From Eledone cirrhosa (taxonomy: Eukaryota), in the NCBI GenBank assembly GCA_964016885.1, contig OZ024742.1, positions 354,454,001 through 354,518,000 on the forward strand: a stretch of DNA of 64,000 nt, in the 5' to 3' direction. Below, piece by piece: positions 7,441 through 63,581 of the stretch. Position numbers and translations under genes: made by a program. Below the pieces are notes generated by a model. The model was not told the origin of the DNA. It saw nothing but the letters and a program-made list of their open reading frames with translations, and ran no database searches. Numbering within the stretch: position 1 is the stretch's first letter; every line of letters begins with the position of its first letter.

Positions 7441-7982
7441 ATGTTCTTACACCATTGAATCCTGAAACACTTATACTTGTTACGCGATGAAATAGTTTTC
7501 TAAATATAATAACTTAACTAATAATATAAACATTTTTATCGATGGACAACGCATCCGTAAATCATTAGTTCGCCACACAATTTTCTCTGTATTTCTGTAC
7601 ACATTTATTGATATAAAAGCTGACAATTTCCATTTGTGTTCAAAGTACAAAGCTATTCCATTCATATATCTGTGATGTTTGCAATACAAATATAATGCTA
7701 GAAGAAGGATAGATTGTAAATGGCGTAGGCATCGTGATACACACCAACAGAAATATGCACACATGACCACTCACTGAAACACACGGACACGTGTATTACA
7801 ATTATATATATACATATATTAGAATTGGCGCGCTGAAATAGCGATATATATATGAATGTATATATAGTGTATTTTGCAATACACTGTATGCTTAATTAAA
7901 AGCATTTAGAAGACCTTATGCTATTGTTTTAGAGTAGTGACAGTCTCACTTACTTTACATGTTCAGCAAACAGGGGAGCTAA

Positions 7983-8027
7983 AACTGACAGAGCTATGTT
8001 TCGTACTGATTGGTACTTATCAAAGCC
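7983..8027 (-). ncRNA. Type I hammerhead, U3-A8 core variant
   Basis: ggct TTGATAA gtac caatca gtac GAAA ca tagctc tg T C agtt; GUC triplet. Confidence 0.7.
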
Positions 8028-9082
8028 AAGTACTCCACCTGTTTGATGAAAATCATGAATATTTGATTCCCATAGAATTTCTAATAATAATCAGGAACTG
8101 ATTATACAGAGCGGTTGCCGGTCAAGCAGAAATTGAAAATTAGAATTGGCGCTCTGAAATAGCGATATATATATATTAATGTATATATAGTGTATTTTGC
8201 AATACACTGTATGCTTAATTAAAAGCATTTCGAAGACGTTATAATGTATATACATTCATATATATATATGCACTATATATACATTCGTACATATATCGCT
8301 ATTTAAGAGCGCCAATTCTAATTTTCAATTTCTGCTTGACCGGCAACCGCTCTCTATAATCAGTTCCTGATTATTATTAGAAATTCTATAAGAATCAAAC
8401 ATTCATGATTTTCAGCAGACAGGTGGAGTACTTGGCTTGGATAATAACCAATCAGTACTAAACATAGCTCAGTCAACTTCATCTCCCCTGTTTGCTGAAA
8501 ATGTAAAGTAAGTGAGGCTGTCACTACTCTAAAACAATAGCATAAGGTCTTCGAAATGCTTTTAATTAAGCATACAGTGTATTGCAAAATACACTATATA
8601 TATATATTCATATATATATATATCGCTATTTCAGAGCGCCAATTCTAATTTTCAATTTCTGCTTGACCGGCAACCGCTCTGTATAATCAGTTCCTGATTA
8701 TTATTAGAAATGTTATATGAATCAAACATTCATGATTTTCAGGAAACAGGTGGAGTACTTGGCTTTGATAAGTACCAATCAGTACGAGACATAGATCTGT
8801 CAGCTTTATCTCCCCTGTTTGCTGAAAATTTAATGTAAGTGAAACTGTCACTACTCTAGAACAATAGCATAAGGTCTTCGAAATGCTTTTAATTAAGCAT
8901 AAGGTGTATTGCAAATACACTATATATACATTCATATATATATATCGCTATTTCAGGGACCCAATTCTAATTATTAATTTCTGCTTGCCCGGCAACAGCT
9001 CTGTATAATCAGTTCCTGATTATTATTAGAAATTCTATAAGAATAAAACATTCATGATTTTCAGCAAACAGGTGTAGTACTT

Positions 9083-9127
9083 GGCTTTGATAAGTACCAA
9101 TAAGTACGAAACATAGTTCTGTCAGCT
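9083..9127 (+). ncRNA. Type I hammerhead, U3-A8 core variant
   Basis: ggct TTGATAA gtac caataa gtac GAAA ca tagttc tg T C agct; predicted cleavage after C9123. Confidence 0.72.
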
Positions 9128-9248
9128 TTATCTCCCCTGTTTGCTGAAAATTTAAAGTAAGTGAGACTGTCACTACTCTAAAACAATAGCATATGGTCTT
9201 CCAAATGCTTTTAATTAAGCATACTGTTTATTGCACAATACACACACA

Positions 9249-9281
<33 letters not shown>

Positions 9282-9287
<6 letters not shown>

Positions 9288-9580
9288 TAAAGGAATTCCA
9301 ACCTGGTCTGATTTACTCGTTTTATTTACAATCCTTTAAAATTTATAATGGTATTATAATGAAATAGTATGATAGAATATTAAATGTTAAGTGTTAATTG
9401 AACAAGTACTTCATGCTTTCGCAATCTTCAGGTTCATAATGTGTGGTGACAGTCAAGTTTGCAATTAACACTTAACATTTAATATTCTATCATACTATTT
9501 CATTATAATACCATTATAAATTTTAAAGGATTGTAAATAAAACGAGTAAATCAGACAAAGTTGGAATTCCTCTTATTAAT
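9282..9580. mobile_element. Palindromic pLTR-derived element (family of 21850-22242), asymmetric
   Basis: Arms ttaataaaaggaattccaac.. / ..gttggaattcctcttattaa; degenerate HHR at 9400-9435 (minus). Confidence 0.75.
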
Positions 9581-9620
9581 ATAATTTTCTATACACAATC
9601 ATACACACCCGTGTATATTT

Positions 9621-9915
<295 letters not shown>

Positions 9916-18342: not shown

Positions 18343-19224
18343 CAAAATTAATATAAATCAAAATGAATTTAACCTAAATCAAAATTATGGATGTCATGCC
18401 ACAAGGCATGCGCCATATCACCCGTAAAATAAGCTCCAAGATTCTAATGAATAGGTCCGAGCAGTATCTATTTTTGAAGTTCTAGTTAACTTTATTTAGT
18501 TACCTACCTAGCTGTGTGTGCTTACACACTTGTACAAATTATGCCCTGTGATTGTTTCATATCTTTATTTATATGTTAATCAATTTCTAGTTGTTATATA
18601 TATATATAAATATATATATTAAAGTGTTAAACAATATTCAATGATTATGTCAAAGAATGAGTTTTACAGTAGATTGGAAGCACTAACACACTTATCGAAT
18701 TTATAAAAATAATATATAAATAACGAGCAAATAATTCTGAAATCTGGAGTCTTCACCTTAATATTATAAATTAAATATTTTCAAATGTAACCGTTTAACT
18801 TTGGAAAAAAATCGCCTTCTGCATATATCACATTTATCTTTCCCTCTTTGTAAATCCTTTTCCAGTGGCTATCACTGGCTGTTATGATTCATGAGATGTT
18901 TTCATAGATATATCGTAGTATCATACATTTTAAAACCTCTAGAACAGTTACAGTAAGCAACGTTTTCTTACTCACACATTCTCTAATGAATTCATTACGT
19001 TTTCGCATTTTCTCATAATTAGGCTATATATGTAACATTTTCCCTTGGGTTAATCACTACCTTGATGAAATCTTAACCATTTAACATCTCAGGGTATGTC
19101 ATGTATCATTATATTTTGTCTGATGAGGACGTACTGTTGTACATCCGAAATATGTATAATAAAATGTAATTGATCAAAAGAACATCTATTTTACTTTTTT
19201 TAGTAATCGTCCCTTTCTCCCTGT

Positions 19225-19265
<41 letters not shown>

Positions 19266-19268
19266 TGT

Positions 19269-20090
19269 AAACGTACATACATATATGTATACAGACGTAC
19301 AGTAGTATGTATATATATATATACATACATGCACACATATATATATGTACTTATGGATTCACCGAACATTTATTATAATGCTCGGTGTGTTTGTAAACAA
19401 ACATTCCGAATTAAGCCGTACAGTATCTAGCAACAATCGTTGCTCATTTGTTCAACACTGACAAAGGAACGCTGTAATAGTTTCAAGCTTATTAGCTATC
19501 GTAAGCAACGTATACATTCCTGCCAGATGGTTGAACGTCTGAAAGTATATACTTTCCTTATGCATATTAACGGCTGACTAGCCTAATTTGCATATCGAGT
19601 GAGTCAATCGGCCGGGGTACCGAAAACGATAAACGGAAAAAAATGAAACGAAATTTCATTTCTCACTCTTAGTACGGCTGTTACTTAAATATAAGTATGT
19701 ATACGTACATACATATATGTATACAGAGGTACAGTAGTATGTTATTATATATACATACATGCACACATATATATATATGTACGTATGGATTCACCGAACA
19801 TTTATTATATTGCTCGGTCTGTTTGTAAATAACCATCCCGAATTAAGCCGTTCTGTGTGTCTAGCAACCATCTTTGCTCATTTGTTCAACACTGACAAAG
19901 GAAAACTGTACTAGTTTCAAGTTTATTAGCTATCGTCAGCAACGTTTACCTTCCTGCCAGATGGTTGAACGTCTGAAAGTATATACTTTCCTTATGCATA
20001 TTAACGACTAAGCAGCCTAATTTGCATATCGAGTGAGTTAATCGGCCGGGGTAACGAAAACGATACACGGAAAAAATGAAACGAAATTTA
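19269..20090 (-). repeat. ~434-bp tandem dimer with octamer and degenerate HHR, related to the 468-bp unit
   Basis: ctaatttgcat at 19583 and 20017; gaaacgaaattt motif. Minus strand aggtaaacgttg CTGACGA..GAAActagTA at 19902-19948. Confidence 0.75.
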
Positions 20091-20387: not shown

Positions 20388-21320
20388 AGAGAGATATAGA
20401 GAGTGAGGGGGATAGACAGAGGGGAATGTAGAGAGGGGGAGAGATAGGGAGGAAACAGACGAAATCTATGTGGTGGGTGTACATTGAGTTCATAGTTGTA
20501 GGCTACAAATTCCACTAAGTTTCCATTTATAGTGATAAGCAGGGTATTGTCTTGTAGTGTGGGGGAAGAGAAAGTGGTTAGCTAGAAAGCAATGTTCTAG
20601 TTACAGGTTCGAATGTTAAGTTATTTTATAGTTTGAGAATTTAGCCTTCAGTTTGTGGTTGCAGTATAATGATCGTTCGATTCTATCATTTAGTAATTTA
20701 TTTTTGTATTTTAAGATGTAAAAGAGTTCAAGGTTAAATAACCTACAGTACTTCAATCCACTCCGATATGCACTAGCACTGGAAAGTATATCCCATTTCA
20801 AGGTGAACTGTTGGTTGCGTTCACGGAGTTGCCAGGTCATGTTGGCGAGTGTGGTCACAAAACGGTGATTAGGATGTTTAATTGAGAATAGATGACGATA
20901 CCAGCGAGATTTAAAGGAGATAATGGTAGACCCGATGTAATACGTTTTCTGGTCGTTCGATTCAACAGTGCATTGGTATGTTGGACTTTAGGCATTTATT
21001 CTTCAATGGACATCTTTCAGGTAGGTGGCAGTTACAGTTTTTGTTGTGGGTAGCGAGTATACCATGGAAAGGTTGGGATAGCACTACAGGAGGGGTGTGT
21101 AATACACGTCTCCCATTTAGTGGTTGGGAGGCCGATATTAATGTTATGCTTATATGTTATTAAAATATTTTGTTTTATAGTGTTGTTTAATTGCTTCAAG
21201 TTAATTTTTTTTATGTATGCTTCAAGGTTCGGTGCCGTGGAGTATGATAGCTTAATAGTTTTAGAGTTCAGAATTGTACTGCATTTATGGTAACTAGGGA
21301 AATGGTTAAGATATCCACAT
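20095..21320 (-). mobile_element. 5'-truncated Hydra-like PLE (thumb/linker/GIY-YIG remnant plus 3'UTR)
   Basis: LNHFPSYHKCSTILNSKTIKLSYSTAPNL; CNCHLPERCPLKNKC (CxCx5C); WQLRERNQQFTLKWDIL..CRLFNLELFYIL. Confidence 0.8.
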
Positions 21321-21763
21321 ACCACTCTATCCCATTTATCCAACCCCCGCATATCTATCTCTCTCTCTCTCTCTCCCCTTCTTTTATCTATTCCTTTTCT
21401 ACTCTATCTTCCCCAATAACTTCACTTAAGGGTATTTACATTTTACATTTTAACCATTCTGCTCCGATGATACAGTGGTCACATCATTTGATAATTGAGT
21501 TTTGCAAATAATTATAAATTTGCACATAACATAACTAGACTGTATAAGCACCGTGGAAACATTTGTAAGCACACATAATAAATTTCCTATTTATGATGTC
21601 TACCTGCTATTATTCATTCTTTATCTACACTCCGGAATACATAAGGATCAGGAACTGAGTTTATTCAACTATTCTTCCATAACTCGTTGAGTAACCTCTC
21701 ACCGTACGTAGACTCCATCCAGTGTAGTAATTAACCATTACTACATCCAGGATAATCCTATAC

Positions 21764-21809
<46 letters not shown>

Positions 21810-21849
21810 TAAATATACACGGCTGTGTATGATTGTGTATAGAAGATTA

Positions 21850-22372
<523 letters not shown>

Positions 22373-25115: not shown

Positions 25116-25689
25116 ATTATTATGATACAAACAAATCCCTCATATAGGCGTATTCCGTTATTTGTTTAATAATCAATGAATTTATTCTATTCCACGCTTC
25201 TAAGATTCCTATTTTATTTGTCGACTTGTATTGTATACGTCAGCCACTGTGGGTATTGAAATGAGAGCGGAGAGCTACAATATATGCCATAATTAATTTA
25301 GTCCGATCAGTGAGAAATCCTACCCATTATATTTAATGCTATATACTTCATTAAAATAATCGTAAGTTAATCATGCTCTATGAATGACACAGCTACATGC
25401 TGCTTGCGAAATGACAACCAAAGGTGGAAGGTCTATGTTAGAAATGCTAATCAATATTTATCGAACCTAATTAATGAATCGTAATGAAAGATCTTTCGTT
25501 GAACGTATGTCATTTACCCGAAGTAGATTCTTGACGAGGCAACTAAAATAAACAATAACATCAACAGCAGAAACAATAAGTACAGCAGCAACAATATGCG
25601 TAAAAAACAAGGAAAATATTCGAAAATCAAAATTATAAGGAAGAATATTCGGCAATATGTGAATTCATACTGACTGCAAATTGACTGGG

Positions 25690-25905
25690 CAGTTTGCAGA
25701 TATGCAAATCTGGCTGATCAGTGGATCTGTTAATATGCAGATCTGACTGATCAGCCACTTGCTAATATGCAAATCAGGCCGACCAGTCAGTGTGTATTTT
25801 TGAAAATAGCATATATTTTAACTAGCTCTGACAGATTAGCAGGTAAACAGTGAGCTGTAGTGATGAAGGGATATGCCCAGAAACGTTAGTGCCTGCAGTT
25901 CTGTT
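25690..25905 (+). other. Octamer cluster followed by a decayed type I HHR (probable solo retrozyme remnant)
   Basis: ATGCAAAT at 25702 and 25767, ATGCAGAT at 25735. gagctgta GTGATGA aggg atatg ccca GAAA cgttagtgcc tgcagttc. Confidence 0.45.
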
Positions 25906-26084
25906 CGCATGCCAAGATAAGAGCAAGAATGAAGTATTCAATCTACTGACATGGCTATAAAATTGAGGCTTCTTTACGTAATTGCAAACGAATCGATATT
26001 GTTGTTTATATTCGAAACAATCAGATTACATTTATTGTATTCAGCCATGTAGAGCAAAATATTATTTTTTATATATATATATAT

Positions 26085-29137: not shown

Positions 29138-29802
29138 CATATATATACATACACACATTCATACACACACACATACACACACACACACATATATATGTGT
29201 ATATACATCCATACACATACATATACACATACATACATACACACATATATATCAACATATCCATACATACACATAGATACACATACACAGACGTGCATAC
29301 ACACACACACACATATACATGCAAATATATATATATATATATATAGACATAAACAAATATATACATACATACACACACATACATATATATACACACGCAC
29401 ATATATATATATATATAGACATACATATATACATACACATGCATACATACATACACACAATCATGCGTATATACACACGTACATACATACACATACATAC
29501 ACACATATATGCACAAATATAGAAATATATACACACACCTACATACTCACACACAGAAATAAATATTAGAAAAAATATATAATAATAAAAATGAATATAA
29601 AGATTATTATAGTGTTGACAACGATACAGGCAACAAATAAATGAACAAACACACGTGGTAAGCAATACCCATAAATGCACGTACACATACATACGTAAAA
29701 ATAAATACATACACATACTCTCACACATAAATATACATATACAAATACATAAACACATACATACGCATACACATATACATACACACATACATATACATAT
29801 AT

Positions 29803-29891
<89 letters not shown>

Positions 29892-29903
29892 TACATACAC
29901 ATA

Positions 29904-32101
29904 AAATCTCATAAATATCCACCTAGAATTAAAGACATGGCCAACTTCGAATTAGACCTTGTTAATTTAATTAGTGATATCAAATTTCGTAAGTACAATA
30001 ATAATTTTCAAACTAAACTGTCTAACGATATTTCTAATTTTAAAAATTCTACAAATACCTTTGTTCTTTCCGTTAAAACTAAAAATCTCTTTGAAGTTAA
30101 TAGTATTGTGTATAACCAACTTTTAACTAATAGTATCACCAACAAATATCAATTAACTAATAATAATACCTACAATACTATTAATAAAGAAGCTAAAGAA
30201 CTAGCTAGTTCTTTAAAAATAAACAACCGGATTGAAAGCTTAGCAAAGTGTAAAGAATATATTACCCTTAAAGATCATAAATTAGACTTTACTAATCGAC
30301 CTAGGTGTAGACTTATTAACCCGGCTAAATGCGAAGTTGGCCTTGCAAGTAAAACAATCTTAAGAAAAATAATTCTCCAAATTAGAACTAAGACTGACCT
30401 ATCACAGTGGTTAAATACTTTCCTCTGTTATTTCTTGGTTTAATAATATACTAGGTAAAATAAGTGTAGATTTACCCAATTTGATGTTGTTGATTTTTAC
30501 CGCTCTATTACTGTTTCATTATTAACTAATGCCATAGAATTTGCAAGACCCTTCATTAATATTTCTAAATTAGAAGAAGGCATTATCTTTCATGATAGAA
30601 AGACTTTACTCTTTACTAATGAAAATATTTGGGTTAAAAAGTCAAACCCTGAAAACTCTGTTGATGTTGCAATGGGTTCATATGACAGTACAGATGCGTG
30701 TGACTTAGTAGGATTATTCCTTCCCCACATACTCAAAGAGAAATTTCTTTCCCATAATATCGGTTTATACCGTGATGACGGATTGGCAGTTTCTCATACC
30801 ACCAACGGCCATAATCTTGATAAATTCCGTAAATATTTAATCAATACTTTTGCTAATCTTAACCTTAAAATTACTATAGATACGAACCTTACCAATGTTA
30901 ACTTTCTTGACATTAATCTTGATCTACTTACCGCCTCTTTTAAACCTTATCATAAACCTAATGAAAATCTTAGATATATACACAAAGAGTCTTGCCATCC
31001 CCCTATAGATTTAAAAATCTTATTCCCAACATTAGCCGTAGGATTTCTACCATATCTTCGTCTATAGACATTTTTAATAAAGCGGCCTCTTATTATAATA
31101 AAGCCCTTAATAACAGCCTGTTTTACAGAACACATTTATTATTTACCTACTCCCCCTCCTAAAACTAACAACAATAATAGGAAAAGGAAAATTATTTGGT
31201 TTACACCCGTTCTCTCTAACTGTCATAACTAATGTAGGAAGGAAATCCATTGACCTCTTAGATAAACATTTTCCTCCTAATCATAGATATTATAAGATAT
31301 TTAATAGAAATGCTGTTAAGATCAGTTACTCTTCTTGCCCATGAATGAAGTCTAAGATCACTACTTCAAATCATACGAGAACAAATCCAGGATGCAGTTG
31401 CAGGAAGACGGATGAATGCCCATTACAGGGCAAATGTAACACCAAATCTGTTGTTTATGAGGCCAAAGTGACACCTTTAATCAACAACCAGCAGCCAGGA
31501 GTGAGCGATATGTTAGCATGACCCAGGAGAGGTTTAAAACCAGGTTTTATGCACACGTCGCTTCTTTTAAGCACTCCGATAAACGAACAACAACGGCCAT
31601 CGCAAGTAAGCTGTGGGAATTCAAGGATAAAAACATCCCGTACTCTATCGATTGGTCTATTTTAGACCATTCGAGGGAGTACCAAAGGGGCACAAAGAAT
31701 TGTTCTTTGTGTACCACAGAAAAATATAGGATTTTGCTAAACTTGAAAGCCACTTCTGCTTGCCTGAACTGAAAGGCCGAGATCTTCAGATGTTGTCCTC
31801 ATCTGACATCACATCTGATCTGTAACTGGGTTGACATTCCTATGATAACTCAACCACCTTGAACTCCTCTCCTGCTCTTTACTTCCACTACGGTTTTTTT
31901 ATCTGTTGAATCCACGTTCTGTACTCTCGTATGCTCTTTCTCCCTTATCTCCCTTTATATTTAAACCTTTTCCTATGTCATTTATTTCCCCCCCCCCTTG
32001 TCCCCCCTATACATTTTTGCCTTACCCTACACATACCGAATTCTTTTTATTTTTAGATATTAATTTTTTTTGTGTGTTGCGTATATGTATGTATATGTGT
32101 A

Positions 32102-32643: not shown

Positions 32644-35600
32644 TATAAACGTTAGAATATGTGTAATAAGGCCAAGACAATGCAGGTATGGACATAGAAA
32701 AAATAATGCAATAGTGAAAGATATTGATGTGAATTCGTCTTTCACCTTGAATTTATTTAAATGTCCTTAATTTTCGAGATAATATCTCTTCTTCGGAGGG
32801 AAGTAAGGGTCTCCAACCAGCGTCTTAAATCTCTAATCAAGCCATGCTGACCGGAAATAGTATAGAGTATCTGTTCTAACTTTAATATCAAAGAATTAAA
32901 ATTAGGTGGATAAAGAGTATTCTCCCTTTAAGAGGGGTTTGTTTATGTTATGTTTTTGTTTTTGTTTTATTTTTTTAAATTTTATATGCGTGCCTGTATA
33001 TGTGTGTGGGAGAATGCATGAAGGTGTAGGTATGTGGGTGTGTGTGTGTGAGTGTGGGAAGATAGGTCTAATCGTAAAAGTGGGGGGTAGTTGTTATCTG
33101 GTGTTAGAACTGGTTGTGTGTGTGTATGTGTGAGAGAGAATAAGTGGAGGTGTGCGCGTGCGTGTGTCTGGGGTGTGTAAAAATGGGGCTAGAGGCCCTA
33201 CCAGGTTATAAATTGGGTGTTGAGCTCTAGTCTATTATTGATTGGTGGATGTGTTCTATCTATAATAAGTGCTTCCTTAATTCTAAGGTTGCCGAGGTTT
33301 CTTTCCTTAGTTTCTATCCTAACTGTTATGTTTTTATCGGTGTTTTTGCATTTAACTAGGTGTTTCTTAAATGAGGAAGCGTTAGTATTGAGGTGTTCTT
33401 TCATTCTTATTATTTTATTCTTTTATTCTTGAAACAGAGACTGGACGACAGACTATGGCTCGACATAGAAACGAATTTCTCTCGGACTGCCTACCAACTG
33501 AAATGGATATCGACTCTCGACAACAACACCACGGAATCCACCACACCCAGATTCCCGATATACCAACTAGATCGCCCACTCTATCCACCGCCCGCCAACC
33601 GCGAGCTGGAAGAAAAACTCTCGAGACTAAAACATTCTGTATTTAACATCTTACGGAAACAGAAGAAGATGGCCGCTAACCTCTCCAGGACACAACAACT
33701 CGCCCTGAAGAACCTACGGAATAAGGAACTTATTTACTTACCATCCGACAAAGGTAAAGAGTTCTGCGTCATCTCTCAAGCCACATACAATAACCTAGCC
33801 TTCGAACACCTAAGCGATAGTGAACTGTACACAGTGATCCCGGACATGACCGCAGCCCAAATCGAAAAACAGACCAACTCCATTTGGTTCGATAACTGTA
33901 GGAGAAGACACCTCCCGAATAAAATTAAACTCAACTACACCACTAGAAATAGCAGACTGCCCACTTTCTACCACCTCATCAAGACCCACAAGAATAGCAC
34001 TAAGACGCATATAAGACCCATCGTCTCTAGCATAGAAGGACCCCTATACAAAATTTCCTGGCTCCTCTCCCACGTCCTCAAGCCTCTACTCTCTACCTTC
34101 CCCGGACATGTCAGTAGCTCCGACGAAGTTATACGTAGATTACACCAACTCCAGCCAGAACAACTTAAACTAAATAAATACGCTTTTAGCCTCAACGTTG
34201 TCTCCCTCTACACTACAGTCCCCGCTCATCCAGCTGTCGATTTATTGACGGACTGCGTGGTCGCAGAGAACACCCACAGCTACGGCCTCCACCCGACGGA
34301 CATACACCAGCTTTTGACCTTCACAGTAGACAACACGTACTTCACCTTCCACCACCACACATACAGACAGACAACATGATTACCCATGGGATCCAGCCTA
34401 TCGGGCCTGCTGGCCATCACTTACATGAACCAGCTAGAATGCCGAGCCCTCAACACCTGCCATTCCCATGCCTTCTTCACCCGATATGTAGATGACATAC
34501 TCATCCTTACATCATCCCGTGAGGAGGCAGAGAAAATATACACAACATTCTCCAGCATGGCCGCCAGTATAAAGTTCAGCATGGAACACCCCGATGTCCG
34601 CGGATCCCTATCCCTGCTGGACTTCCAACTCAGGTTAACAGAGGTAGGCAACATCCACACCTGCTTCTATAAAAAATCCGCCAGCAGGGACCTGTTCGTA
34701 CATTTCAGATCGGCCCTCCCACTCGGTGCCAAGTTCGGATACATAAAGAACGAACTGGCACGTATCAAGAACAAATGCACCGATGCCAGAGACCGAGACA
34801 CACACACCACACATTTCCTGGAAGTACTCAAACTGAACGGATACACGACATCCACCACAAACCGTGCCAGGAAGAACAGAGGACACCACACCCGAGGCAC
34901 TAACACTTGCTTCCAGAAGCTCCCACACTTCTGTGAAGAAACAACAACAGCCATCCGCAGAGCCATCAGACGAGAGGGTCTGGATATTCAACTGGCCCAC
35001 TCGGGTCCTTCTTTGCGCAGACGGCTGGCTAAGAGATACTCCACCAGACATGACAACTGCTGCAGACTAGCCAACTGCCCCATCAACGACACAGACCTAT
35101 GCCACCAGGCTTACGTAGTATACAGACTAGAGTGTGACAAATGCAACAACTTCTACGTAGGTAGCACCACCAGACCACTCCACATAAGAATAAAAGAACA
35201 CCTCAATACTAACGATTCCTCATTTAAGAAACACCTAGTTAAATGCAAAAACACCGATAAAAACATAACAGTTAGGATAGAAACTAAGGAAAGAAACCTC
35301 GGCAATCTTAGAATTAAGGAAGCACTTATTATAGATAGAACACATCCACCAATCAATAATAGACTAGAGCTCAACACCCAATTTATAACCTGATAGGGCC
35401 TCTAGCCCCATTTTTACACACCCCACACACACGCACGCGCACACCTCCACTTATTCTCTCTCACACATACACACACAAAACCAGTTCTAACACCAGATAA
35501 CACCTACACCCCACTTTTACGATTAGACCTATCTTCCCACACTCACACACACACATACACATACCTACACCTTCATGCATTCTCCCACACACATATACAG

Positions 35601-36659: not shown

Positions 36660-37801
<1,142 letters not shown>

Positions 37802-39855: not shown

Positions 39856-40700
39856 GTGATTGCACAACAATTAGTTCACCATACCGAGAAAAATTGTTTC
39901 ACCTTAGCGGATCCTCACCTCGGAATGGGCATGGTTTTAGGAACAGGAAGGACAACCGTAGGAACGGGCATGCGCAGAAACCCGCTCACTTCACACAGGC
40001 AATACTAGACTGCGTGCGAGAGGTGTAAGGGAGATAACTGTGAAAGTCCGAAAAGGTTTTAGGTTGAAAAATAAAATTACAAAGACTCAGCACGGACCCT
40101 TGTATTTATAATAGGTGTTTGGCGACGTGTGGACAACGTGTGAAAAATTCATTTCTCGTCTTTAGGCAATCACTAATGCGTAATCTCTTTATAATAGTTA
40201 TTCGTTCGTCAATACATAAGCCACTCGTCGGGTTTCCTCTTGCGTATGGCTTGGACTTAATGACGGCTTTCCATTGAATGGAGTAGTCTATACTTGAGTC
40301 CTTGACGGACCATACGTGGATAGCGAGTTTCGTGGATTAACGTCTGTCCCGGTACCTTAAGGTAGACTGGTGGTTCAGGAAATGTTCCTTAAATGGTCCC
40401 TCCGCCATGCCCACATAGGATTTTACCTCCTGTGGTTCGTTTGGTCGATTGAAAGTGACCACAGCTACATAAATTACAGCTGGTGTGTTGCATTGCTGTT
40501 GAAGGGGGCAAGCTTCAGGCTTACGACAAGAGCACCCTGGTGGGGTGTTGCTCCTAGGGCTACTGGTGATGTGGGAATTCATGTTCTTAGCGCAGGATAA
40601 TTCTACTTTAACTTTGTGTCGGTTAAAGATGGAGCGGTATTTATGAGCTATGGGAAAGTGTCTATGTAAGAGAGCTAGAGCAGTTTTTCCTACATTGTTT
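39850..40700 (-). mobile_element. 5'-truncated Hydra-like PLE with pLTR HHR (39884-39923)
   Basis: GCSCRKPEACPLQQQCNTPAVIYVAVV..YVGMAEGPFKEHFLNH; ccgag GTGAGGA t-cc gctaa gg-t GAAA caattt TT ctcgg. Confidence 0.82.
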
Positions 40701-40704
40701 TACT

Positions 40705-42390
40705 ACTTTACTACTATGAACATAGCACACAATATAAATAGAATCAATAACAGAAATTTAAACCCTAACCATAATAACCAAAATAACAGTAACATCTCTA
40801 GCAATATCCAAAATAATAGTACCGTTCCGAATAAAAACAACTCCGCAAAATGTTACTGTAGAATTAAATTAAACTGTCCTTTACAACATAGATGTTTAGA
40901 TAAGGAGGTGGTCTATAAATGTACAGTGAAAACCAATGATAATATATTTAACTATGTCGGTGCAACTTCTACAGAATTTAAAAGTCACTGGAATAATCAC
41001 AAATGCTCTTTCCGAAGATTTGATAAAACATCTTCAACTTCTCTTTCAAACCTGATATGGAACTTAAAATGCAAATATATGGACTATTCATTTACTTGGG
41101 AATTAATCTCGAAAGCACCCGCGTACCGAAACACAGCTTTATCAAGATTCTGCAAATGTTTGTGGAGGAAATTGTTTTCATAATTAAATGTAAGGACTCT
41201 ATTATCTAAGAACGAATATATTTAATTCTTGTAGACATCGCCTGATTTCAACATTTAGAACTATATATAAATTATAATTACACTTATATTTCTACTTATT
41301 TCCATAACAATCTTATCCACTTGGTTTTAATATATTGATATCTCTAAATCATATCTATAACATTTGCTATAATTTCACTTATTAAAGTTACATAAAATAT
41401 ATACATATATAATTCTAATTTGTTTTAAAATTTTATTTTTATTTTAATTGTAATTTTAATCTTAATACTTTTTAATTCTTTATTTTTTATTTCTTTATTT
41501 TTTTAATTTGTTAACACTTTATTTATTTATTTATTTTTTTTAAATACTTATCTCTTATGAATTATTTTTTAAATAATTTTCTCAAATTTCAATATTTTTC
41601 AATAGTTTTTATTAGTTTTATAACCACTAACTAATTCTGGCTAAATATATCTTTCAAGATTTATGCTTATTTTGACAAAATAATCTCATACTAACGAATA
41701 CATAAACTAAACTGGAGTTTTTCCGTATCTTCCCTTTTAAAATATATAATAAATATTCTTTTTAACTCGGTTAATTTAATTTAATTTAACTTAATATTTA
41801 CTTACATTAAATACAAAACCAATATCCCACATAACTCATTAAAACAATCATATTTAAGATGATATTCATTTATTTATCTATTTACTTATCTATTTATTCA
41901 TTTATGTATTTACTTATTTATCTACTTATAACAGAAAACATTATATTAGAAACAAATTTTAAACAACTAATAGTCGTAAATACACGTACTATTAGAATAT
42001 ATTTCCCCCAAATTAACGTTATATGAGTTTTATTCATCCTATCTTGTCTATTTCTTCTCTCTATCTCTCTCAGAATATTGTTTATCTTTATCCCCTAATA
42101 TTTTTTCTCTCTTTCTTGCTCCAGTGTCATTTAAATAAACGGTTGTTTTTCAAATATTTACATATTCATTTACTTATTCACACATAGGTTTTAATAATCC
42201 CTAATATATTTCCACTATCCAGTGAATTTCCGACCGATAAGGTATGATTTTCATGGGTATGTCTCTATTTATAAAACAAACTTTGTATTTTATCTGATGA
42301 AAGCGTACCAATGTTGTCTTGGTACGATTGAAATATATATAATAAAATAAATATGGTTTTATAAATATAGTTTCCATTTATTTAATATCA
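40705..42390 (+). mobile_element. 5'-truncated Hydra-like PLE (different family) with a long AT-rich 3'UTR
   Basis: CYCRIKLNCPLQHRCLDKEVVYKCTV..YVGATSTEFKSHWNNH..WNLK..WELI. Confidence 0.82.
42286..42349 (+). ncRNA. Type I hammerhead (intact)
   Basis: tattttat CTGATGA aagcgtaccaa tgttgtc ttggtacgatt GAAA tatata T A ataaaata. 8-bp stem I and an ATATATAT palindromic stem III. Confidence 0.82.
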
Positions 42391-44319: not shown

Positions 44320-47300
44320 TGTAACCGAGACACAGTTTTATACTATTACAACTTGATGACAATCAACTAGTTATAAATATGTATATATATTTTATATATT
44401 TCGTTTCTGAATTTGTTTAGCAATTCTTTATCTGAAAACGTGTGTTGAAACCGATATTGTTATAGTTTGGGGGGTCATGTTGCCAAGCCAATAAGAAACA
44501 CACGCACCAGCTGCTTTCACTCCAATTTATTATAAATTAAATTATAAATTTAAAAATTTAAAAATTTCCGGTTGGTTGGTTGGTTCCACAACCGGACGGT
44601 TGTTCATATATTTTCAAAGTTATTTCGTCACACATTCTGTGACCTCTTCGGTGACTGAGGATTATTCTTTTTGTTTTTGCCTCTCCTTTCTTCTCCCCTA
44701 TGCCATTTAGTTTTTGTGTGTGTTGTGTGCTTAGTGTGCGCACGTGTTACATCCGGATGTCTGTGTGTGTTTTTATTGGTTTATTTATTTATTTATTTTC
44801 ATGTTACTGGTTGGTTGTTTGTTCTATGTGTGTGTGTTGTCATTTTGTCCTTAATTGTAAGTTGTGATGTTGCTATTCCATTCATGTTTTCTATTTAATT
44901 TTGGTTGGAGTTCATTTATGTTTATTGCCTCTGTGATTAGTCTTAACATTGCGTCTTTTCTGTGTGTAAATTTTATTTTTATTTATATGTTCTCTAATTT
45001 GCCCTTATGTTCTATTTTAACATGTTAGTGGAGTACTGATAAATCTTCTCCGATTTGAAGCTCGCGCCAGTGTTCATTAAATCGTTCTCCTATACTACAA
45101 GCTGTCTCACCTATGTACACTATATTCTTATCTTTACATTTTCCTTCAGCACATCTTATGCTGTATACTATGTTTCTAGTTTTACAGTTAATATGGGGGC
45201 TTAGTTTACATATTATGCATTTCCTATCTATTCAGGGAGGACTTTGAAAAGGGTATGTATTACTAATAAGTGTTTTATGGAGGTACCTGGTCTTTCTACT
45301 ATCTTAATATTTAGTTTAAGTTTATCTGGGGCCCTTCTAAATTTGTAAGTTAATTCACCTCTAGGGGTTGTATTGATGAACATTACACTCTGATATTTAA
45401 TGCTATCATACCATGAGTTTATTCTATTAATCTTATTCATAGTTCTTTCTATTATATTCCAGAATTTGCTCCTATACAAGGGGAAGGTCCCCTTTGTATC
45501 ATCATTTACCATTTTTTTCACATCTGGTTCTGTCTCCTCTATATATTACCTCAATGGCAAAGAAAACCCACACATAAATATGGAACTGGTGGACCAGAGA
45601 CATATGGACCATCAAAACCATGATGAACTAAAGAAAATGAATGCACGTGCGGTGGGGGCCAGTATAAAACTAACCCTTAAGGAACATATGTTCAAATTTA
45701 ATGGAAAAACATTTGCCCAAGAGGAGGTAGCAGCTGACACAGCTAAACTATTTATGGTATGGTGGTACAATAAACTTATAGAACAATTAGAAGACATCAG
45801 CCTCTTAACCCTGATAAAGTACTCTTGCTACGTTGATACTATAAACATCGTAGTAAAAACACCCCACTAGAGAACAGCCAGGAATTAGAGAAAAAACACC
45901 ATGGAAAGCATCCAGCAAATACCTAACTCCATACACCAGAGTATTAGAGTTACTATATACTACCCAAGCAAACACCCCAACCATCGTTTACCTGTACAAG
46001 AGAGGGAGCTCTGGTTAGAAACCATTAATATCAACAAACAAATCCTCCATTCCCATTATGCCAAACCCATGACTTCCAAATATCTGATCCACCGAAACTC
46101 AGCTGTTTCGGATCACACCGAAATAAACATACTGATTGCGGATTTGGTACGGTTGATGAGAAACGTGTCCCGCATGTGCAACCCCAAAGAACTAGAGAGG
46201 CACATACAACACTTCATCCACAGTATGCAGTTCTCTGGTTACAATCAGAGAGAAAAAATCAGAGTATATAGAGGAGGCAGAACCAAATGGGAAACAATGG
46301 TAAATAATGATACAAATGGGACCTGTCCCTTGAATAGGAGCACATTTTGGAATATAATAGAAAGAACTAGGAATAAGGTTAATAGAATAAACTCATCGTA
46401 TGATAGCAATAAATACCAGAGTGTAATGTTCATCAATACAACACCTGGAGGTGAATTAGCTTACAAATTTAGAAGGGCCCTACATAAATTTTAACTAAAT
46501 ATTAAAATACTAGAAAGACCAGGCACCTCCATAAACACACTTATTAGTAATACATACCTTTTTCAAAGACCTCCCTGTATAGATAAGAAATGTATAATCT
46601 GTAAATTAAGCGCCCATATTAACTGTAAAACTAGAAATGTAGTATATAGCATAAGATGTACTGAAAGACAATGTAAAGATAAGAATATAGTGTACATAGG
46701 TGAGACCGCTAGTAGAGTAGGAGAACGATTAAATGAACACTGGCGAGAGCTTCAAGATAGAAAAGAGTCATCAATACTCTACCAACATGTATAAATAGAA
46801 CATAAGGGCAAATTAGAGAACATATAAATAAAAATAAAACCTACACACAGAAAAGACGCAATGTTTAGACAAATCACAGAGGAAATAAACATAAATGAAC
46901 TCCAACCAAAATTAAATAGAAAACATGAATGGAATAGCAACACCACAACTTACAATTAAGGACAAAATGAAAACACACACACATAGAACAAACAACTAAC
47001 AAGAGTAACATGTAAATAAACAAATAAATAAACAAATAAAAACACACACAGACACCCAGATGTAACACGTGCGCAAACTAAGCACACAACACACAAAAAC
47101 AAAATGACGTTGGACAGAACAAAGAAGGAATAACAAAACAAAGAAAATACTCCCCAGTCACTGAAGAGGGCACACAATGTGTGACGAAAGAACTTTGACA
47201 ATATATGAACAACCATCCGAACAACCATCCAGTTGTGGAAACAACCAACCAACCGGAAATTTATAAATTTTTAAATTTATAATTTAATTTATAATAAATT

Positions 47301-54885: not shown

Positions 54886-55946
54886 TACACCTCATTTTTG
54901 AATGATACTAAATCATTACTAAAAAAAAAAACCCAGTCCAATTTATTTTAACAGAAAATCACGAAGGTGCCATGGATGTCTATGACTGAGATTTTAAGGA
55001 CAACTCGGTTAACAACTGTTAAATGTAGAGTAATGTGACGGAAATAAAATGTCTCATGACATGATTTTATATTAGTCTATACGAATATATTTTTTCAGAT
55101 TATTTTTTAAGTAATTTTATTTCTTTTCAAACTGTATTTCGAAATATATAGGTTTATCACTGATATGGGCTATTATTAACCGGCGAAATAGTTTTTATGC
55201 AAAGGTCTGCTTTAAAAAAATTCATCAGATTTCTTTACTAATTTAATCCATATCAAACATTAAACAGGTTTTATACCTAATATAGAATGGTATTTCCTAT
55301 AGAATCAAAGAAAATATAAACACGCCAGTTTTATGACTTTCTTTGATTTTATACGTTATAATTGCAAGCCATTAATACTTTGTCTAGTAAGTTAATTAAA
55401 TGATTTTTTTTCAGCAGATTTCAGCACTTTCCACATAATACATCAAGTACTAAGAATGTCTATTCACTAATAATTATATTTATTTTCTTCCGAACTAGTT
55501 TTAGTCTATCACTTATAGAGATATAGGAGATGAAATTATTTACAACAGACAGGGTCAAACTAAGTTCTCAATTGAGCTTTAATGCAGTTTCATCCACACA
55601 AACTTTTTAGAGTCTTAATAGTCAAGCGGCAATGATAAGATTTCGGAAGAAGAATTGAAAGCAAAAATATACGCAGCATACAAAAGGTGCAATTTATATA
55701 TATATATATATACATATATGTATAATTAAGTTAAAAATGTACATCTACATATGCATACTGAAATACTAGTGTGTATATGAATACACACACGTATACATAT
55801 GTAGGTGTAACAAGTCTTTCACTGGTTGCTTTACTGTGAGCAAACCCAGCTATTCTGTATGTAAACACACAGACAAACCGGTTTTTAGAATCATACTGGT
55901 TTTCGGGGGAACACCTTCCCTCTATTCTCCAGAAAGCCAGAAAAGG

Positions 55947-55991
55947 AATATTGAACTAGTTTCGTTGTTGTTACAACTCATCAGCAATATT
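55947..55991 (-). ncRNA. Minimal type I hammerhead; repeats at +468n (56415, 56883, 57351, 57819, 58287, 58755, 59223, 59691, 60159)
   Basis: aatattg CTGATGA gttgt aaca acaac GAAA c ta g T T caatatt. Stem III is the palindrome ACTAGT and the triplet is GUU. G12C in the copies at 57351 and 59223. Confidence 0.88.
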
Positions 55992-56076
55992 TACCTATCT
56001 ACCGGCCCTTCTGGAGAATTGTAAAAGCACATATCGTTATATGCTTTTTCTATGAAAATTAGTAGTGGGCAGACTA

Positions 56077-56084
56077 ATTTGCAT
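56077..56084 (-). promoter_or_regulatory. Octamer ATGCAAAT in the 468-bp unit, ~90 nt 5' of the HHR on the HHR-sense strand
   Basis: atttgcat recurs with the 468-bp period (atatgcat in units 5 and 9). The same motif and context are seen in the 434-bp family. Confidence 0.45.
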
Positions 56085-59000
56085 AGAGTGTGAGTACGCA
56101 CCGGTTCAGCGGAGACGATAAAAACAAATAACGAAACGAAATTAAATTTCGTTTCATTTGTAACTCACTTTTGTATGACTGACGCTTAAACAATTAAGTT
56201 AAAAATGTACATCTACATATGCATACTGAAATACTAGTGTGTATATGAATACACACACGTATACATATGTAGGTGTAACAAGTCTTTCACTGGTTGCTTT
56301 ACTGTGAGCAAACCCAGCTATTCTGTATGTAAACACACAGACAAACCGGTTTTTAGAGTCATACTGGTTTTCGGGGGAACACCTTCCCTCTATTCTCCAG
56401 AAAGCCAGACAAGGAATATTGAACTAGTTTCGTTGTTGTTACAACTCATCAGCAATATTTACCTATCTACCGGCCCTTCTGGAGAATTGTAAAAGCACAT
56501 ATCGTTATATGCTTATTCTATGAAAATTAGTAGTGGGCAGACTAATTTGCATAGAGTGTGAGTACGCACCGGTTCAGCGGAGACGATAAAAACAAATAAC
56601 GAAACGAAATTAAATTTCGTTTCATTTGTAACTCACTTTTGTATGACTGACGCTTAAACAATTAAGTTAAAAATGTACATCTACATATGCATACTGAAAT
56701 ACTAGTGTGTATATGAATACACACACGTATACATATGTAGGTGTAACAAGTCTTTCACTGGTTGCTTTACTGTGAGCAAACCCAGCTATTCTGTATGTAA
56801 ACACACAGACAAACCTGTTTTTAGAGTCATACTGGTTTTCGGGGGAACACCTTCCCTCTATTCTCCAGAAAGCCAGACAAGGAATATTGAACTAGTTTCG
56901 TTGTTGTTACAACTCATCAGCAATATTTACCTATCTACCGGCCCTTCTGGAGAATTGTAAAAGTACATATCGTTATATGCTTTTTCTATGAAAATTAGTA
57001 GTGGGCAGACTAATTTGCATAGAGTGTGAGTACGCACCGGTTCAGCGGAGACGATAAAAACAAATAACGAAACGAAATTAAATTTCGTTTCATTTGTAAC
57101 TCACTTTTGTATGACTGACGCTTAAACAATTAAGTTAAAAATGTACATCTACATATGCATACTGAAATACTAGTGTGTATATGAATACACACACGTATAC
57201 ATATGTAGGTGTAACAAGTCTTTCACTGGTTGCTTTACTGTGAGCAAACCCAGCTATTCTGTATGTAAACACACAGACAAACCTGTTTTTAGAGTCAAAC
57301 TGGTTTTCGGGGGAACACCTTCCCTCTATTTTCCAGAAAGCCAGACAAGGAATATTGAACTAGTTTGGTTGTTGTTACAACTCATCAGCAATATTTACCT
57401 ATCTACCGGCCCTTCTGGAGAATTGTAAAAGCACATATCGTTATATGCTTTTTCTATGAAAATTAGTAGTGGGCAGACTAATTTGCATAGAGTGTGAGTA
57501 CGCACCGGTTCAGCGGAGACGATAAAAACAAATAACGAAACGAAATTAAATTTCGTTTCATTTGTAACTCACTTTTGTATGACTGACGCTTAAACAATTA
57601 AGTTAAAAATGTACATCTACATATGCATACTGAAATACTAGTGTGTATATGAATACACCCACGTATACATATGTAGGTGTAACAAGTCTTTCACTGGTTG
57701 CTTTACTGTGAGCAAACCCAGCTATTCTGTATGTAAACACACAGACAAACCGGTTTTTAGAGTCATACTGGTTTTCGGGGGAACACCTTCCCTCTATTTT
57801 CCAGAAAGCCAGACAAGGAATATTGAACTAGTTTCGTTGTTGTTACAACTCATCAGCAATATTTACATATCTACCGGCCCGTCTGGAGAATTGTAAAAGC
57901 ACATATCGTTATATGCTTTTTCTATGAAAATTAGTAGTGGGCAGACTAATATGCATAGAGTGTGAGTACGCACCGGTTCAGCGGAGACGATAAAAACAAA
58001 TAACGAAACGAAATTAAATTTCGTTTCATTTGTAACTCAATTTTGTATGACTGACGCTTAAACAATTAAGTTAAAAATGTACATCTACATATGCATACTG
58101 AAATACTAGTGTGTATATGAATACACACACGTATACATATGTAGGTGTAACAAGTCTTTCACTGGTTGCTTTACTGTGAGCAAACCCAGCTATTCTGTAT
58201 GTAAACACACAGACAAACAGGTTTTTAGAGTCATACTGGTTTTCGGGGGAACACCTTCCCTTAATTCTTCAGAAAGCCAGACAAGGAATATTGAACTAGT
58301 TTCGTTGTTGTTACAACTCATCAGCAATATTTACCTATCTACCGGCCCTTCTGGAGAATTGTAAAAGCACATATCGTTATATGCTTATTCTATGAAAATT
58401 AGTAGTGGGCAGACTAATTTGCATAGAGTGTGAGTACGCACCGGTTCAGCGGAGACGATAAAAACAAATAACGAAACGAAATTAAATTTCGTTTCATTTG
58501 TAACTCACTTTTGTATGACTGACGCTTAAACAATTAAGTTAAAAATGTACATCTACATATGCATACTGAAATACTAGTGTGTATATGAATACACACACGT
58601 ATACATATGTAGGTGTAACAAGTCTTTCACTGGTTGCTTTACTGTGAGCAAACCCAGCTATTCTGTATGTAAACACACAGACAAACCTGTTTTTAGAGTC
58701 ATACTGGTTTTCGGGGGAACACCTTCCCTCTATTCTCCAGAAAGCCAGACAAGGAATATTGAACTAGTTTCGTTGTTGTTACAACTCATCAGCAATATTT
58801 ACCTATCTACCGGCCCTTCTGGAGAATTGTAAAAGTACATATCGTTATATGCTTTTTCTATGAAAATTAGTAGTGGGCAGACTAATTTGCATAGAGTGTG
58901 AGTACGCACCGGTTCAGCGGAGACGATAAAAACAAATAACGAAACGAAATTAAATTTCGTTTCATTTGTAACTCACTTTTGTATGACTGACGCTTAAACA

Positions 59001-60679
59001 ATTAAGTTAAAAATGTACATCTACATATGCATACTGAAATACTAGTGTGTATATGAATACACACACGTATACATATGTAGGTGTAACAAGTCTTTCACTG
59101 GTTGCTTTACTGTGAGCAAACCCAGCTATTCTGTATGTAAACACACAGACAAACCTGTTTTTAGAGTCAAACTGGTTTTCGGGGGAACACCTTCCCTCTA
59201 TTTTCCAGAAAGCCAGACAAGGAATATTGAACTAGTTTGGTTGTTGTTACAACTCATCAGCAATATTTACCTATCTACCGGCCCTTCTGGAGAATTGTAA
59301 AAGCACATATCGTTATATGCTTTTTCTATGAAAATTAGTAGTGGGCAGACTAATTTGCATAGAGTGTGAGTACGCACCGGTTCAGCGGAGACGATAAAAA
59401 CAAATAACGAAACGAAATTAAATTTCGTTTCATTTGTAACTCACTTTTGTATGACTGACGCTTAAACAATTAAGTTAAAAATGTACATCTACATATGCAT
59501 ACTGAAATACTAGTGTGTATATGAATACACCCACGTATACATATGTAGGTGTAACAAGTCTTTCACTGGTTGCTTTACTGTGAGCAAACCCAGCTATTCT
59601 GTATGTAAACACACAGACAAACCGGTTTTTAGAGTCATACTGGTTTTCGGGGGAACACCTTCCCTCTATTTTCCAGAAAGCCAGACAAGGAATATTGAAC
59701 TAGTTTCGTTGTTGTTACAACTCATCAGCAATATTTACATATCTACCGGCCCGTCTGGAGAATTGTAAAAGCACATATCGTTATATGCTTTTTCTATGAA
59801 AATTAGTAGTGGGCAGACTAATATGCATAGAGTGTGAGTACGCACCGGTTCAGCGGAGACGATAAAAACAAATAACGAAACGAAATTAAATTTCGTTTCA
59901 TTTGTAACTCAATTTTGTATGACTGACGCTTAAACAATTAAGTTAAAAATGTACATCTACATATGCATACTGAAATACTAGTGTGTATATGAATACACAC
60001 ACGTATACATATGTAGGTGTAACAAGTCTTTCACTGGTTGCTTTACTGTGAGCAAACCCAGCTATTCTGTATGTAAACACACAGACAAACCTGTTTTTAG
60101 AGTCATACTGGTTTTCGGGGGAACACCTTCCCTCTATTCTCCAGAAAGCCAGACAAGGAATATTGAACTAGTTTCGTTGTTGTTACAACTCATCAGCAAT
60201 ATTTGTTTTTATCGTCTCCGCTGAACCGGTGCGTACTCACACTCTATGCAAATTATTCTTGTCTGGCTTTCTGGAAAATAGAGGGAAGGTGTTCCCCCGA
60301 AAACCAGTATGATTCTAAAAACCGGTTTGTCTGTGTGTTTACATACAGAATAGCTGGGTTTGCTCACAGTAAAGCAACCAGTGAAAGACTTGTTACACCT
60401 ACATATGTATACGTGTGTGTATTCATATACACACTAGTATTTCAGTATGCATATGTAGATGTACATTTTTAACTTAATTGTTTAAGCGTCAGTCATACAA
60501 AAGTGAGTTACAAATGAAACGAAATTTAATTTCGTTTCGTTATTTGTTTTTATCGTCTCCGCTGAACCGGTGCGTACTCACACTCTATGCAAATTAGTCT
60601 GCCCACTACTAATTTTCATAGAAAAAGCATATAACGATATGTGCTTTTACAATTCTCCAGAAGGGCCGGTAGATAGGTA

Positions 60680-60724
60680 AATATTGCTGATGAGTTGTAA
60701 CAACAACGAAACTAGTTCAATATT
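60680..60724 (+). ncRNA. Minimal type I hammerhead (inverted arm)
   Basis: aatattgCTGATGAgttgtaacaacaacGAAActagTTcaatatt; predicted cleavage after 60717. Confidence 0.88.
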
Positions 60725-61147
60725 CATTGTCTGGCTTTGTGGAGAATAGAGGGAAGGTTTTCCCCCGAAAACCAGTATGACTCTAAAAACCGGTTTGTCT
60801 GTGTGTTTACATACAGAATAGCTGGGTTTGCTCACAGTAAATCAACCAGTGAAAGACTTGTTACACCTACATATGTATACGTGTGTGTATTCATATACAC
60901 ACTAGTATTTCAGTATGCATATGTAGATGTACATTTTTAACTTAATTGTTTAAGCGTCAGTCATACAAAAGTGAGTTACAAATGAAACGAAATTTAATTT
61001 CGTTTCGTTATTTGTTTTTATCGTCTCCGCTGAACCGGTGCGTACTCACACTCTATGCAAATTAGTCTGCCCACTACTAATTTTCATAGAAAAAGCATAT
61101 AACGATATGTGCTTTTACAATTCTCCAGAAGGGCCGGTAGATAGGTA

Positions 61148-61192
61148 AATATTGCTGATGAGTTGTAACAACAACGAAACTAGTTCAATATT
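61148..61192 (+). ncRNA. Minimal type I hammerhead (inverted arm)
   Basis: Identical to 60680-60724. Confidence 0.88.
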
Positions 61193-61496
61193 CCTTTTCT
61201 GGCTTTATGGAGAATAGAGGGAAGGTGTTCCCCCGAAAACCAGTATGATTCTAAAAACCGGTTTGTCTGTGTGTTTACATACAGAATAGCTGGGTTTGCT
61301 CACAGTAAAGCAACCAGTGAAAGACTTGTTACACCTACATATGTATACGTGTGTGTATTCATATACACGCTAGTATTTCAGTATGCATATGTAGATGTAC
61401 ATTTTTAACTTAATTGTTTAAGCGTCAGTCATACAAAAGTGAGTTACAAATGAAACGAAATTTAATTTCGTTATTTGTTTTCATATATATATATAT

Positions 61497-63284: not shown

Positions 63285-63581
63285 TATAAAGAAAAAGAGA
63301 TGAAATCGAAAATGCAACTGGAGTCTTATTTTTAAAAAAAATATATATATTTATTTGGTTCCTTTGCCGGTTCCGCAGTTCTTCTGCTTTTCAAAAGGTG
63401 AGTTGAGATGGAGGGTCAGTGGTTTTTCTCACATCTCTATTGTGAGAAAAACCACAGACCCTCCATCTCAACTCACCCTTTGAAGAGCAGAAGAATGCGA
63501 AACCGGTAAAGGAACCAAATAATTATATATATTTAAAAAAAAAATAAGACTCCAGTTGCATTTTCGATTTCATCTCTTTTT

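Follow-up and report, generated by a model that had tools for sequence, protein, structure and literature searches.

The octamer that precedes the hammerhead ribozyme in three repeat loci is, judged by sequence comparison, one ancestral site retained within a single lineage, in two branches that are certain and a third that is probable, and does not stand for three recruitments. The loci lie in a 64,000-nt stretch of DNA (the window), a microsatellite-rich animal sequence that may resemble octopus DNA, with several fragments of Penelope-like elements (PLEs). In the reading that we favour, at a probability of about 0.4, the octamer is a predicted POU site in a compact internal RNA polymerase II (Pol II) promoter, made of octamer and TATA-like word, within a PLE-mobilised retrozyme lineage. 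A promoter role in DNA of some type stands at roughly even odds. The features are collected in Table 1.

Table 1. Features of the three octamer-hammerhead loci and their surroundings (positions in the window)
Feature	Position	Strand	Remarks
468-bp retrozyme array, left arm, 9.6 units	55724..60204	(-)	runs into (AT)n at its 3' end; 5' end falls within stem I
468-bp array, right arm, head-to-head with left	60200..61484	(+)	60-nt fragment ending at octamer, then 2.6 units
Type I hammerhead, intact core, palindromic short stem III	55931..56002	(-)	predicted cut between 55954 and 55953
AGGTAAA	55990..55996	(-)	part of hammerhead stem I (distal helix, 2-nt bulge); similar to a 5' splice site as well
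Predicted Pol II start, CA at octamer +71/+72	56012..56013	(-)	putative
TATA-like CATATA	56038..56043	(-)	41 nt after octamer start; also hairpin arm
Inverted one-mismatch octamer ATGAAAAT	56052..56059	(+)	3' arm of octamer hairpin
Octamer block TATGCAAATTAG	56074..56085	(-)	longest exact run common to 468- and 434-bp units; 5' arm of hairpin
T-run, 34-38 nt upstream of octamer	56586..56590	(-)	insertion ends joined to (AT)n, seen in 12 X1 contigs; array end 61484 is at this site too
434-bp unit dimer, homologue of 468-bp unit	19258..20090	(-)	hammerhead cores at 19939 and 19505, U.U at stem II base
Octamer, 434 copy a	19586..19593	(-)	TATATA at +42
Octamer, 434 copy b	20020..20027	(-)	TATATA at +42, AGGTAAA at +76
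GIY-YIG fragment of Penelope-like element	20619..20987	(-)	same strand, ~530 nt upstream of 434 dimer
129-bp palindrome of about four octamer modules (solo copy)	25666..25794	(+)	exact at 25702, 25767; one mismatch at 25674, 25735
TATA-like CATATA (solo copy)	25810..25815	(+)	43 nt after last solo octamer
AGGTAAA and decayed hammerhead-like motif of solo copy	25841..25906	(+)	single

Three hammerhead repeat loci and their kinship

The 468-bp units form a head-to-head array with both 3' ends in (AT)n. Its two inner junctions, each a single event, lie 4 nt after the predicted hammerhead cut, where the 2.6 units of the right arm start, and at the start of stem I; the 3' end of these 2.6 units is the T-run joined to (AT)n. 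The hammerhead core is intact in most copies of the array, and the copies match Rfam Hammerhead_HH9 with E-values of 3e-6 to 2e-3, below the gathering score. Array copies four units apart (57949, 59821) carry identical variants within 55724-60204; this suggests a secondary duplication of 1872 bp inside the array. In run X1, the summed contig depth over positions 56270-56737 is very high (1e5-7e5), consistent with a high-copy 468 family, and the window copy has the minority allele at 14 of the scored X1 variant sites.

The 434-bp unit aligns with the 468-bp unit over its whole length (nhmmer E 8.7e-19; 59% identity over 427 columns), and one of its two hammerhead copies has core changes. By their alignment, the 468- and 434-bp units are one family of type I hammerhead retrozymes. 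The decayed solo copy, which was chosen for its octamers, is probably a third branch of the same lineage. Its hammerhead lacks C3, has A.A at the base of stem II and a triplet that looks non-cleavable, and is absent among the Rfam matches listed. The 66-nt spacer between its octamer and AGGTAAA (both motifs excluded) resembles the 434 spacer, the similarity being reached in 3 and 9 of 1000 shuffles (p 0.003-0.009). Similarity to the 468 spacer is not significant (105 of 1000 shuffles), and the upstream flank has no similarity to the 468- and 434-bp units (453 and 881 of 1000 shuffles). The module that makes up the solo palindrome (fold z -8.0) in about four copies occurs once in the 434-bp unit; its multiplication was matched by none of 1000 shuffles, in a comparison whose stretch takes in the start of the next octamer. 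On the 468/434 alignment and the solo spacer, what the initial annotation presented as three independent octamer cases is one lineage instead.

The motif AGGTAAA had been noted at or just before stem I in all three repeats. It is present in 9 of the 11 full array copies and in the solo copy (25841), which agrees with that description, but in one of the two 434-bp units (19951), the second reading ATGTATA in its place. Its distance from the octamer is 88 nt in the 468-bp unit, 76 nt in the 434-bp unit and 74 nt in the solo copy; 19 nt separate it from the core in the solo copy versus 12 nt elsewhere. AGGTAAA was dropped as independent promoter evidence, as the sequence is part of stem I, where it builds the distal helix and the bulge. 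Its likeness to a splice donor matters because the Penelope pLTR is described as containing an intron that ends at stem I (PMC4209133).

The window has several Penelope-like RT/GIY-YIG elements, all broken and drawn from at least three families, at 33375-35390 (+), 29619-31802 (+), 40647-41180 (+), 45394-46791 (+) and 20619-21403 (-), and some window elements of this kind have inverted 5' copies. On the 5' side of the 434 dimer, about 530 nt away and separated from it by a (TC)n tract, is a GIY-YIG fragment on the same strand; this is the single junction of its type, and the 468 array flanks no RT-GIY-YIG ORF. Head-to-head arrangement and (AT)n targets are described for PLE insertions in the literature covered. 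Other short repeats in the window are also head-to-head and end in (AT)n like the 468 array (7818-9277, 9280-9621 and 21810-22246); the descriptor scan found no hammerhead in the 327-bp tandem among them. There is also a near-perfect long inverted repeat, a MITE-like hairpin, at 63355-63530.

Spacing and conservation of the octamer

The octamer ATGCAAAT is present at 56077-84 (-), 19586-93 (-), 20020-27 (-), 25702-09 (+) and 25767-74 (+). At all five sites it lies upstream of a hammerhead on the same strand, which bears out the initial annotation on this point. From octamer start to hammerhead core there are 100 nt in the 468-bp unit, 88 nt in the 434-bp unit and 93 nt for solo site 25767, the exception being solo site 25702 at 158 nt. 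The window contains 17 exact octamers versus 6.6 expected, a number reached in 0 of 100 shuffles; the excess arises because the repeats supply it, 10 of the 17 being copies in the 468 array. Of the 12 octamer positions of this array, 10 are exact and 2 read ATGCATAT. The remaining octamers lie in a microsatellite (29319), in a GIY-YIG frame (41069) and in unrelated DNA (42797). Background density is about 1 octamer per 20 kb per strand.

Between the 468- and 434-bp units, the octamer lies inside the longest exact run, 12 nt versus 9 nt for the ribozyme boxes, with identities of 8/12 upstream and 7/12 downstream of the run. The chance of some run of at least 12 between the two units is 0.29. 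A second block near the octamer, AATTTCGTTTC (11 nt, no known motif), is almost equally conserved, and the 75 nt upstream of the octamer form a block that is conserved as a whole. Across the three lineages, TATGCAAAT is the sole 9-mer common to all three 370-450-nt regions and the longest three-way run, and the octamer is the best-conserved word of these lineages, whose identity to one another is about 50-60%. For any run of this kind the chance comes to 0.011-0.019 with the three-way identity as measured (36%), and to 0.06-0.12 with a laxer 45%; for three-way retention of this 8-mer, p is 0.001-0.007 with the four modules allowed for. The extra T in TATGCAAAT matches the A/T beside functional nematode octamers, which are described as always flanked by A/T (PMC2841177).

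Within the 468 family, run X1 has 19 places with variants of at least 10%, none of them in the octamer or the hammerhead; the probability that 8 bases are variant-free is 0.71, which leaves the within-family test without power. Runs X7, X13 and X18, from other organisms, contribute 9, 3 and 1 low-depth contigs with the same alleles as X1 and are therefore no independent lineages. Among the sequencing runs listed as carrying the family, none is an RNA run. The proposal that the octamer is more conserved than its flanks thus receives a moderate yes from the sequences, resting on the solo copy: the three-way comparison agrees with it, whereas the within-family comparison is powerless and the 468/434 run is within chance.

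The layout of an octamer before a hammerhead is by itself not evidence. At least 106 metagenome loci and 4 viral loci have an octamer 78-108 nt before a hammerhead, and many of these hammerheads are of the minimal PLE type. Among the matches listed (110 loci), 67 pass the fold filter; they fall into 35 clusters with uniform spacing (KS p 0.47), and no homologue of the window units is among them. The pattern used forces the octamer and has no denominator, and cannot show enrichment. Two clusters among the matches listed, L002 (19 loci) and L001 (9 loci), at positions 601-727, carry an octamer about 90-93 nt upstream of the core, in flanks that differ; they are multi-copy metagenome families with minimal hammerheads, their octamer being forced by the search. 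In the window, none of the five further minimal PLE-type hammerhead-like motifs, at 19120 (+), 42294 (+), 194 (-), 37571 (+) and 28352 (-), has an exact octamer within 250 nt upstream; the loci at 37571 and 28352 share 95% identity. The strict family hammerhead pattern has 0 matches in the metagenome contigs, and the family patterns gave 3 matches in genome contigs and 50 in viral contigs with no homologue among them (best E 0.13). One 306-kb viral contig carries dispersed 60-66-nt periodic repeats (L129, L136, L157, L158 and L159) with TATGCAAATTAG and AGGTAAA, which look like coding repeats unrelated to the retrozyme. A Helenus/Ajax link was dropped, the motif terms having 0 matches.

Promoter site, RNA element or chance

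The position of a YATATA word relative to the octamer is nearly constant: +41 in the 468-bp unit, +42 in both 434 copies and +43 in the solo copy, at a background of 0.015 per 5-nt window and with the copies being related. The dinucleotide CA follows at +71, +71, +71 and +73. TATA-like words are common in DNA of 33% GC, and the present one, itself a hairpin arm as well, is weak promoter evidence. In the reading favoured here, the three loci would represent one non-LTR retrozyme lineage, most likely mobilised by PLEs, and a POU factor would bind the octamer in DNA as part of a compact internal Pol II promoter. The octamer would lie at about -72, the TATA-like word at about -30 and the start directly before hammerhead stem I, 47 nt from the cut in the 434-bp unit and 59 nt in the 468-bp unit. 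Transcription from each unit of an array would run through that unit and those that follow. The hammerheads would then cut the multimer, and the pieces would close into circles, from which reverse transcription starting at internal U-rich sites would place copies in (AT)n targets. The predicted start at octamer +72 makes the promoter reading of the family precise. A portable POU-bound promoter, as originally proposed, is a reasonable reading of these sequences: the octamer is the best-kept word, is multiplied in the solo copy and keeps a fixed distance to the TATA-like word, but it is at the same time the arm of an RNA hairpin.

The initial annotation had overlooked that the octamer is an arm of a conserved inverted repeat, which introduces a rival at the RNA level. 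The octamer hairpin could be recognised by a Penelope-like RT/endonuclease or another RNA-binding protein, the POU match being incidental; this is a real possibility, if less likely than the promoter reading. As predicted circles, the monomers are far more stably folded than their shuffles (z -8.2 and -5.1); their hairpins correspond between the 468- and 434-bp units, and the octamer is the 5' arm of a predicted hairpin in both. The X1 variants respect the fold. After removal of 3 edge rows at 56310-12 and addition of 2 rare rows, 20 variant sites were scored, of which 7 are unpaired and 13 paired; 11 of the 13 keep the pair, 18 sites fit the fold, and none of 60 random sets folds as well. A compensatory pair, 56377/56386, is found among these variants, and the single octamer variant in X1 (0.75%) keeps a G.U pair. 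In these fold models, structural selection on the retrozyme RNA is clear. The conservation of the 75-nt upstream block as a whole would also suit an RNA role. On the side of the DNA site, none of the 14 pairs of the octamer helix has two-sided changes while 10 of 17 helices have some (alignment-dependent); this counts for less in that paired columns are 67% identical overall, giving p 0.04 for 8 identical. Insertion 3' ends lie 34-110 nt upstream of the octamer: 55724 and 19258 are at the same small hairpin, and 61484 and the loose end in X1 (56586) are at the T-run. The octamer hairpin appears well placed as an RNA recognition element because the insertion ends are internal, as in the lizard PLE, for which RT is described to start internally and to need RNA 3' of the starts (PMC11167929). 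However, the solo copy keeps and multiplies the octamer although the upstream block and the local partner arm are lost, and chance is an unlikely reason for the best-kept word to match the POU consensus exactly, with both arms within 1-2 mismatches. The octamer strand is fixed while its pairing partner differs from lineage to lineage, the solo partner being different again; this combination points to sequence recognition, of DNA or RNA alike.

A single chance origin of the octamer in an AT-rich ancestor, with the slow evolution of stems preserving it afterwards, is unlikely. A single origin, the ease of a 12-nt run between the 468- and 434-bp units, the background density of octamers and the many unrelated hammerhead families with the same layout and uniform spacing among the matches listed would all suit such a neutral history; three-way retention speaks against it, p being about 0.01-0.1 if any 9-mer is counted and 0.001-0.007 for the 8-mer itself. 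More improbable still is an snRNA-type promoter, with the octamer as distal element (DSE) next to a SNAPc-bound PSE and convergent or homologous with newt satellite 2, as the initial annotation had suggested. Compact type 3 promoters with a close octamer do exist (H1), and an octamer-like site is annotated in a flatworm U6 promoter, but there it is about 215 nt from the TATA, versus 41-43 nt here. The T-runs in the units (T5 at +347 and +428 in the 468-bp unit, T7 at +384 in the 434-bp unit) would stop Pol III before the next hammerhead. In the comparison of the three lineages with one another, no block is conserved three-way at octamer +100 to +260, the expected PSE zone, which speaks against a PSE only in part; the PSE is described as an essential core element (PMC3499247).

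The favoured reading, a compact Pol II promoter of octamer and TATA-like word, could be joined with the RNA fold, as the inverted second octamer site would allow this stretch to form a hairpin in the RNA circle. The inverted pair of POU sites would then be a dual-coded module, a DNA promoter with a TATA-like element and an RNA hairpin beside the RT start sites; this combination is put forward tentatively, the odds being against it. If true, it would explain the expression of such repeats wherever they are inserted. The hairpin of octamer and partner arm allows a design that separates the DNA role from the RNA role. Two other candidates were set aside. A heat-shock or IRF reading of the upstream hairpin is not canonical against the known consensus, and an AP-1 site beside the octamer is found in 434 copy a only.

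Comparison with known hammerhead repeats

The promoter of newt satellite 2 reportedly combines an octamer with a PSE, and its start is said to lie about 47 nt before the cut, which would match the start predicted for the 434-bp unit. In contrast to that octamer-plus-PSE arrangement, no PSE was found in the window units, and they have a TATA-like word 41-43 nt from the octamer; their membership in the newt promoter type is not established. An internal snRNA-type Pol II promoter (Coats, Zhang and Epstein 1994, as cited in PMC2220036) and transcription by Pol II (PMC6765202) are described for newt satellite 2. Human immunoglobulin VH promoters, as described in PMC2212390, have ATGCAAAT on the sense strand shortly before a weak TATA, as here. 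The octamer-TATA gap is 33-35 bp here versus 8-26 bp in the VH promoters covered, and the genes are unrelated, so that the analogy is one of geometry only. By this analogy the layout is closer to octamer-plus-TATA Pol II promoters than to DSE-plus-PSE promoters.

By sequence features, the window elements are non-LTR retrozymes. Like the metazoan non-LTR retrozymes described by Cervera and de la Pena (2020, PMC7229834), they consist of tandem non-coding units (no ORF of 90 aa lies within a 468- or 434-bp unit) with a type I hammerhead and PLEs alongside, the co-existing PLEs being represented by RT and GIY-YIG fragments in the window. Their GC content of 35-37% (the criterion being below 45-50%) and strongly self-paired predicted circle are similar to the same group, and the unit lengths (434-468 bp) reach or slightly exceed the 150-450 bp quoted there (PMC7229834). 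The U.U at the base of stem II in the 434 hammerhead is also seen in axolotl HHR_Amex2, a variant described as active (PMC7229834). Animal retrozymes are described as strongly transcribed in all tissues examined (PMC7229834), but the main text of that paper names no endogenous promoter for non-LTR retrozymes ('promoter' occurs twice, both times for T7), whereas a candidate internal promoter and internal insertion ends are present here. In the texts covered, an endogenous promoter is named for the newt and schistosome repeats only, and the search of open literature found no report on octamers in invertebrate retrozymes.

The pLTRs of PLEs are described as containing a hammerhead and, within the repeat, an internal promoter and start site (PMC8557442, PMC4209133, PMC6765202), and animal retrozymes have been proposed to derive from them (PMC8557442, PMC4209133, PMC6765202, PMC11167929, bioRxiv 2026.07.22.740005). 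Head-to-head inverted copies, (TA)n targets and an internal RT start are features that the window units have in common with pLTRs as described in these sources (PMC11167929; bioRxiv 2026.07.22.740005 among them). The 468 array differs from pLTRs in that it contains no ORF and in its hammerhead, which is canonical instead of minimal. In the pLTR literature covered, the octamer was not found, and the text of bioRxiv 2026.07.22.740005 contains neither 'promoter' nor 'octamer' (0 occurrences in the portion covered). By analogy, an internal promoter in a hammerhead repeat has precedent in the snRNA-type promoter of the newt, in the Pol III internal promoter described for the schistosome hammerhead satellite and in the pLTRs of PLEs. 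If the dual-coded module is true, the window units would represent a second, architecturally different recruitment of an octamer by a hammerhead repeat besides the newt, or else a relic of a PLE pLTR promoter.
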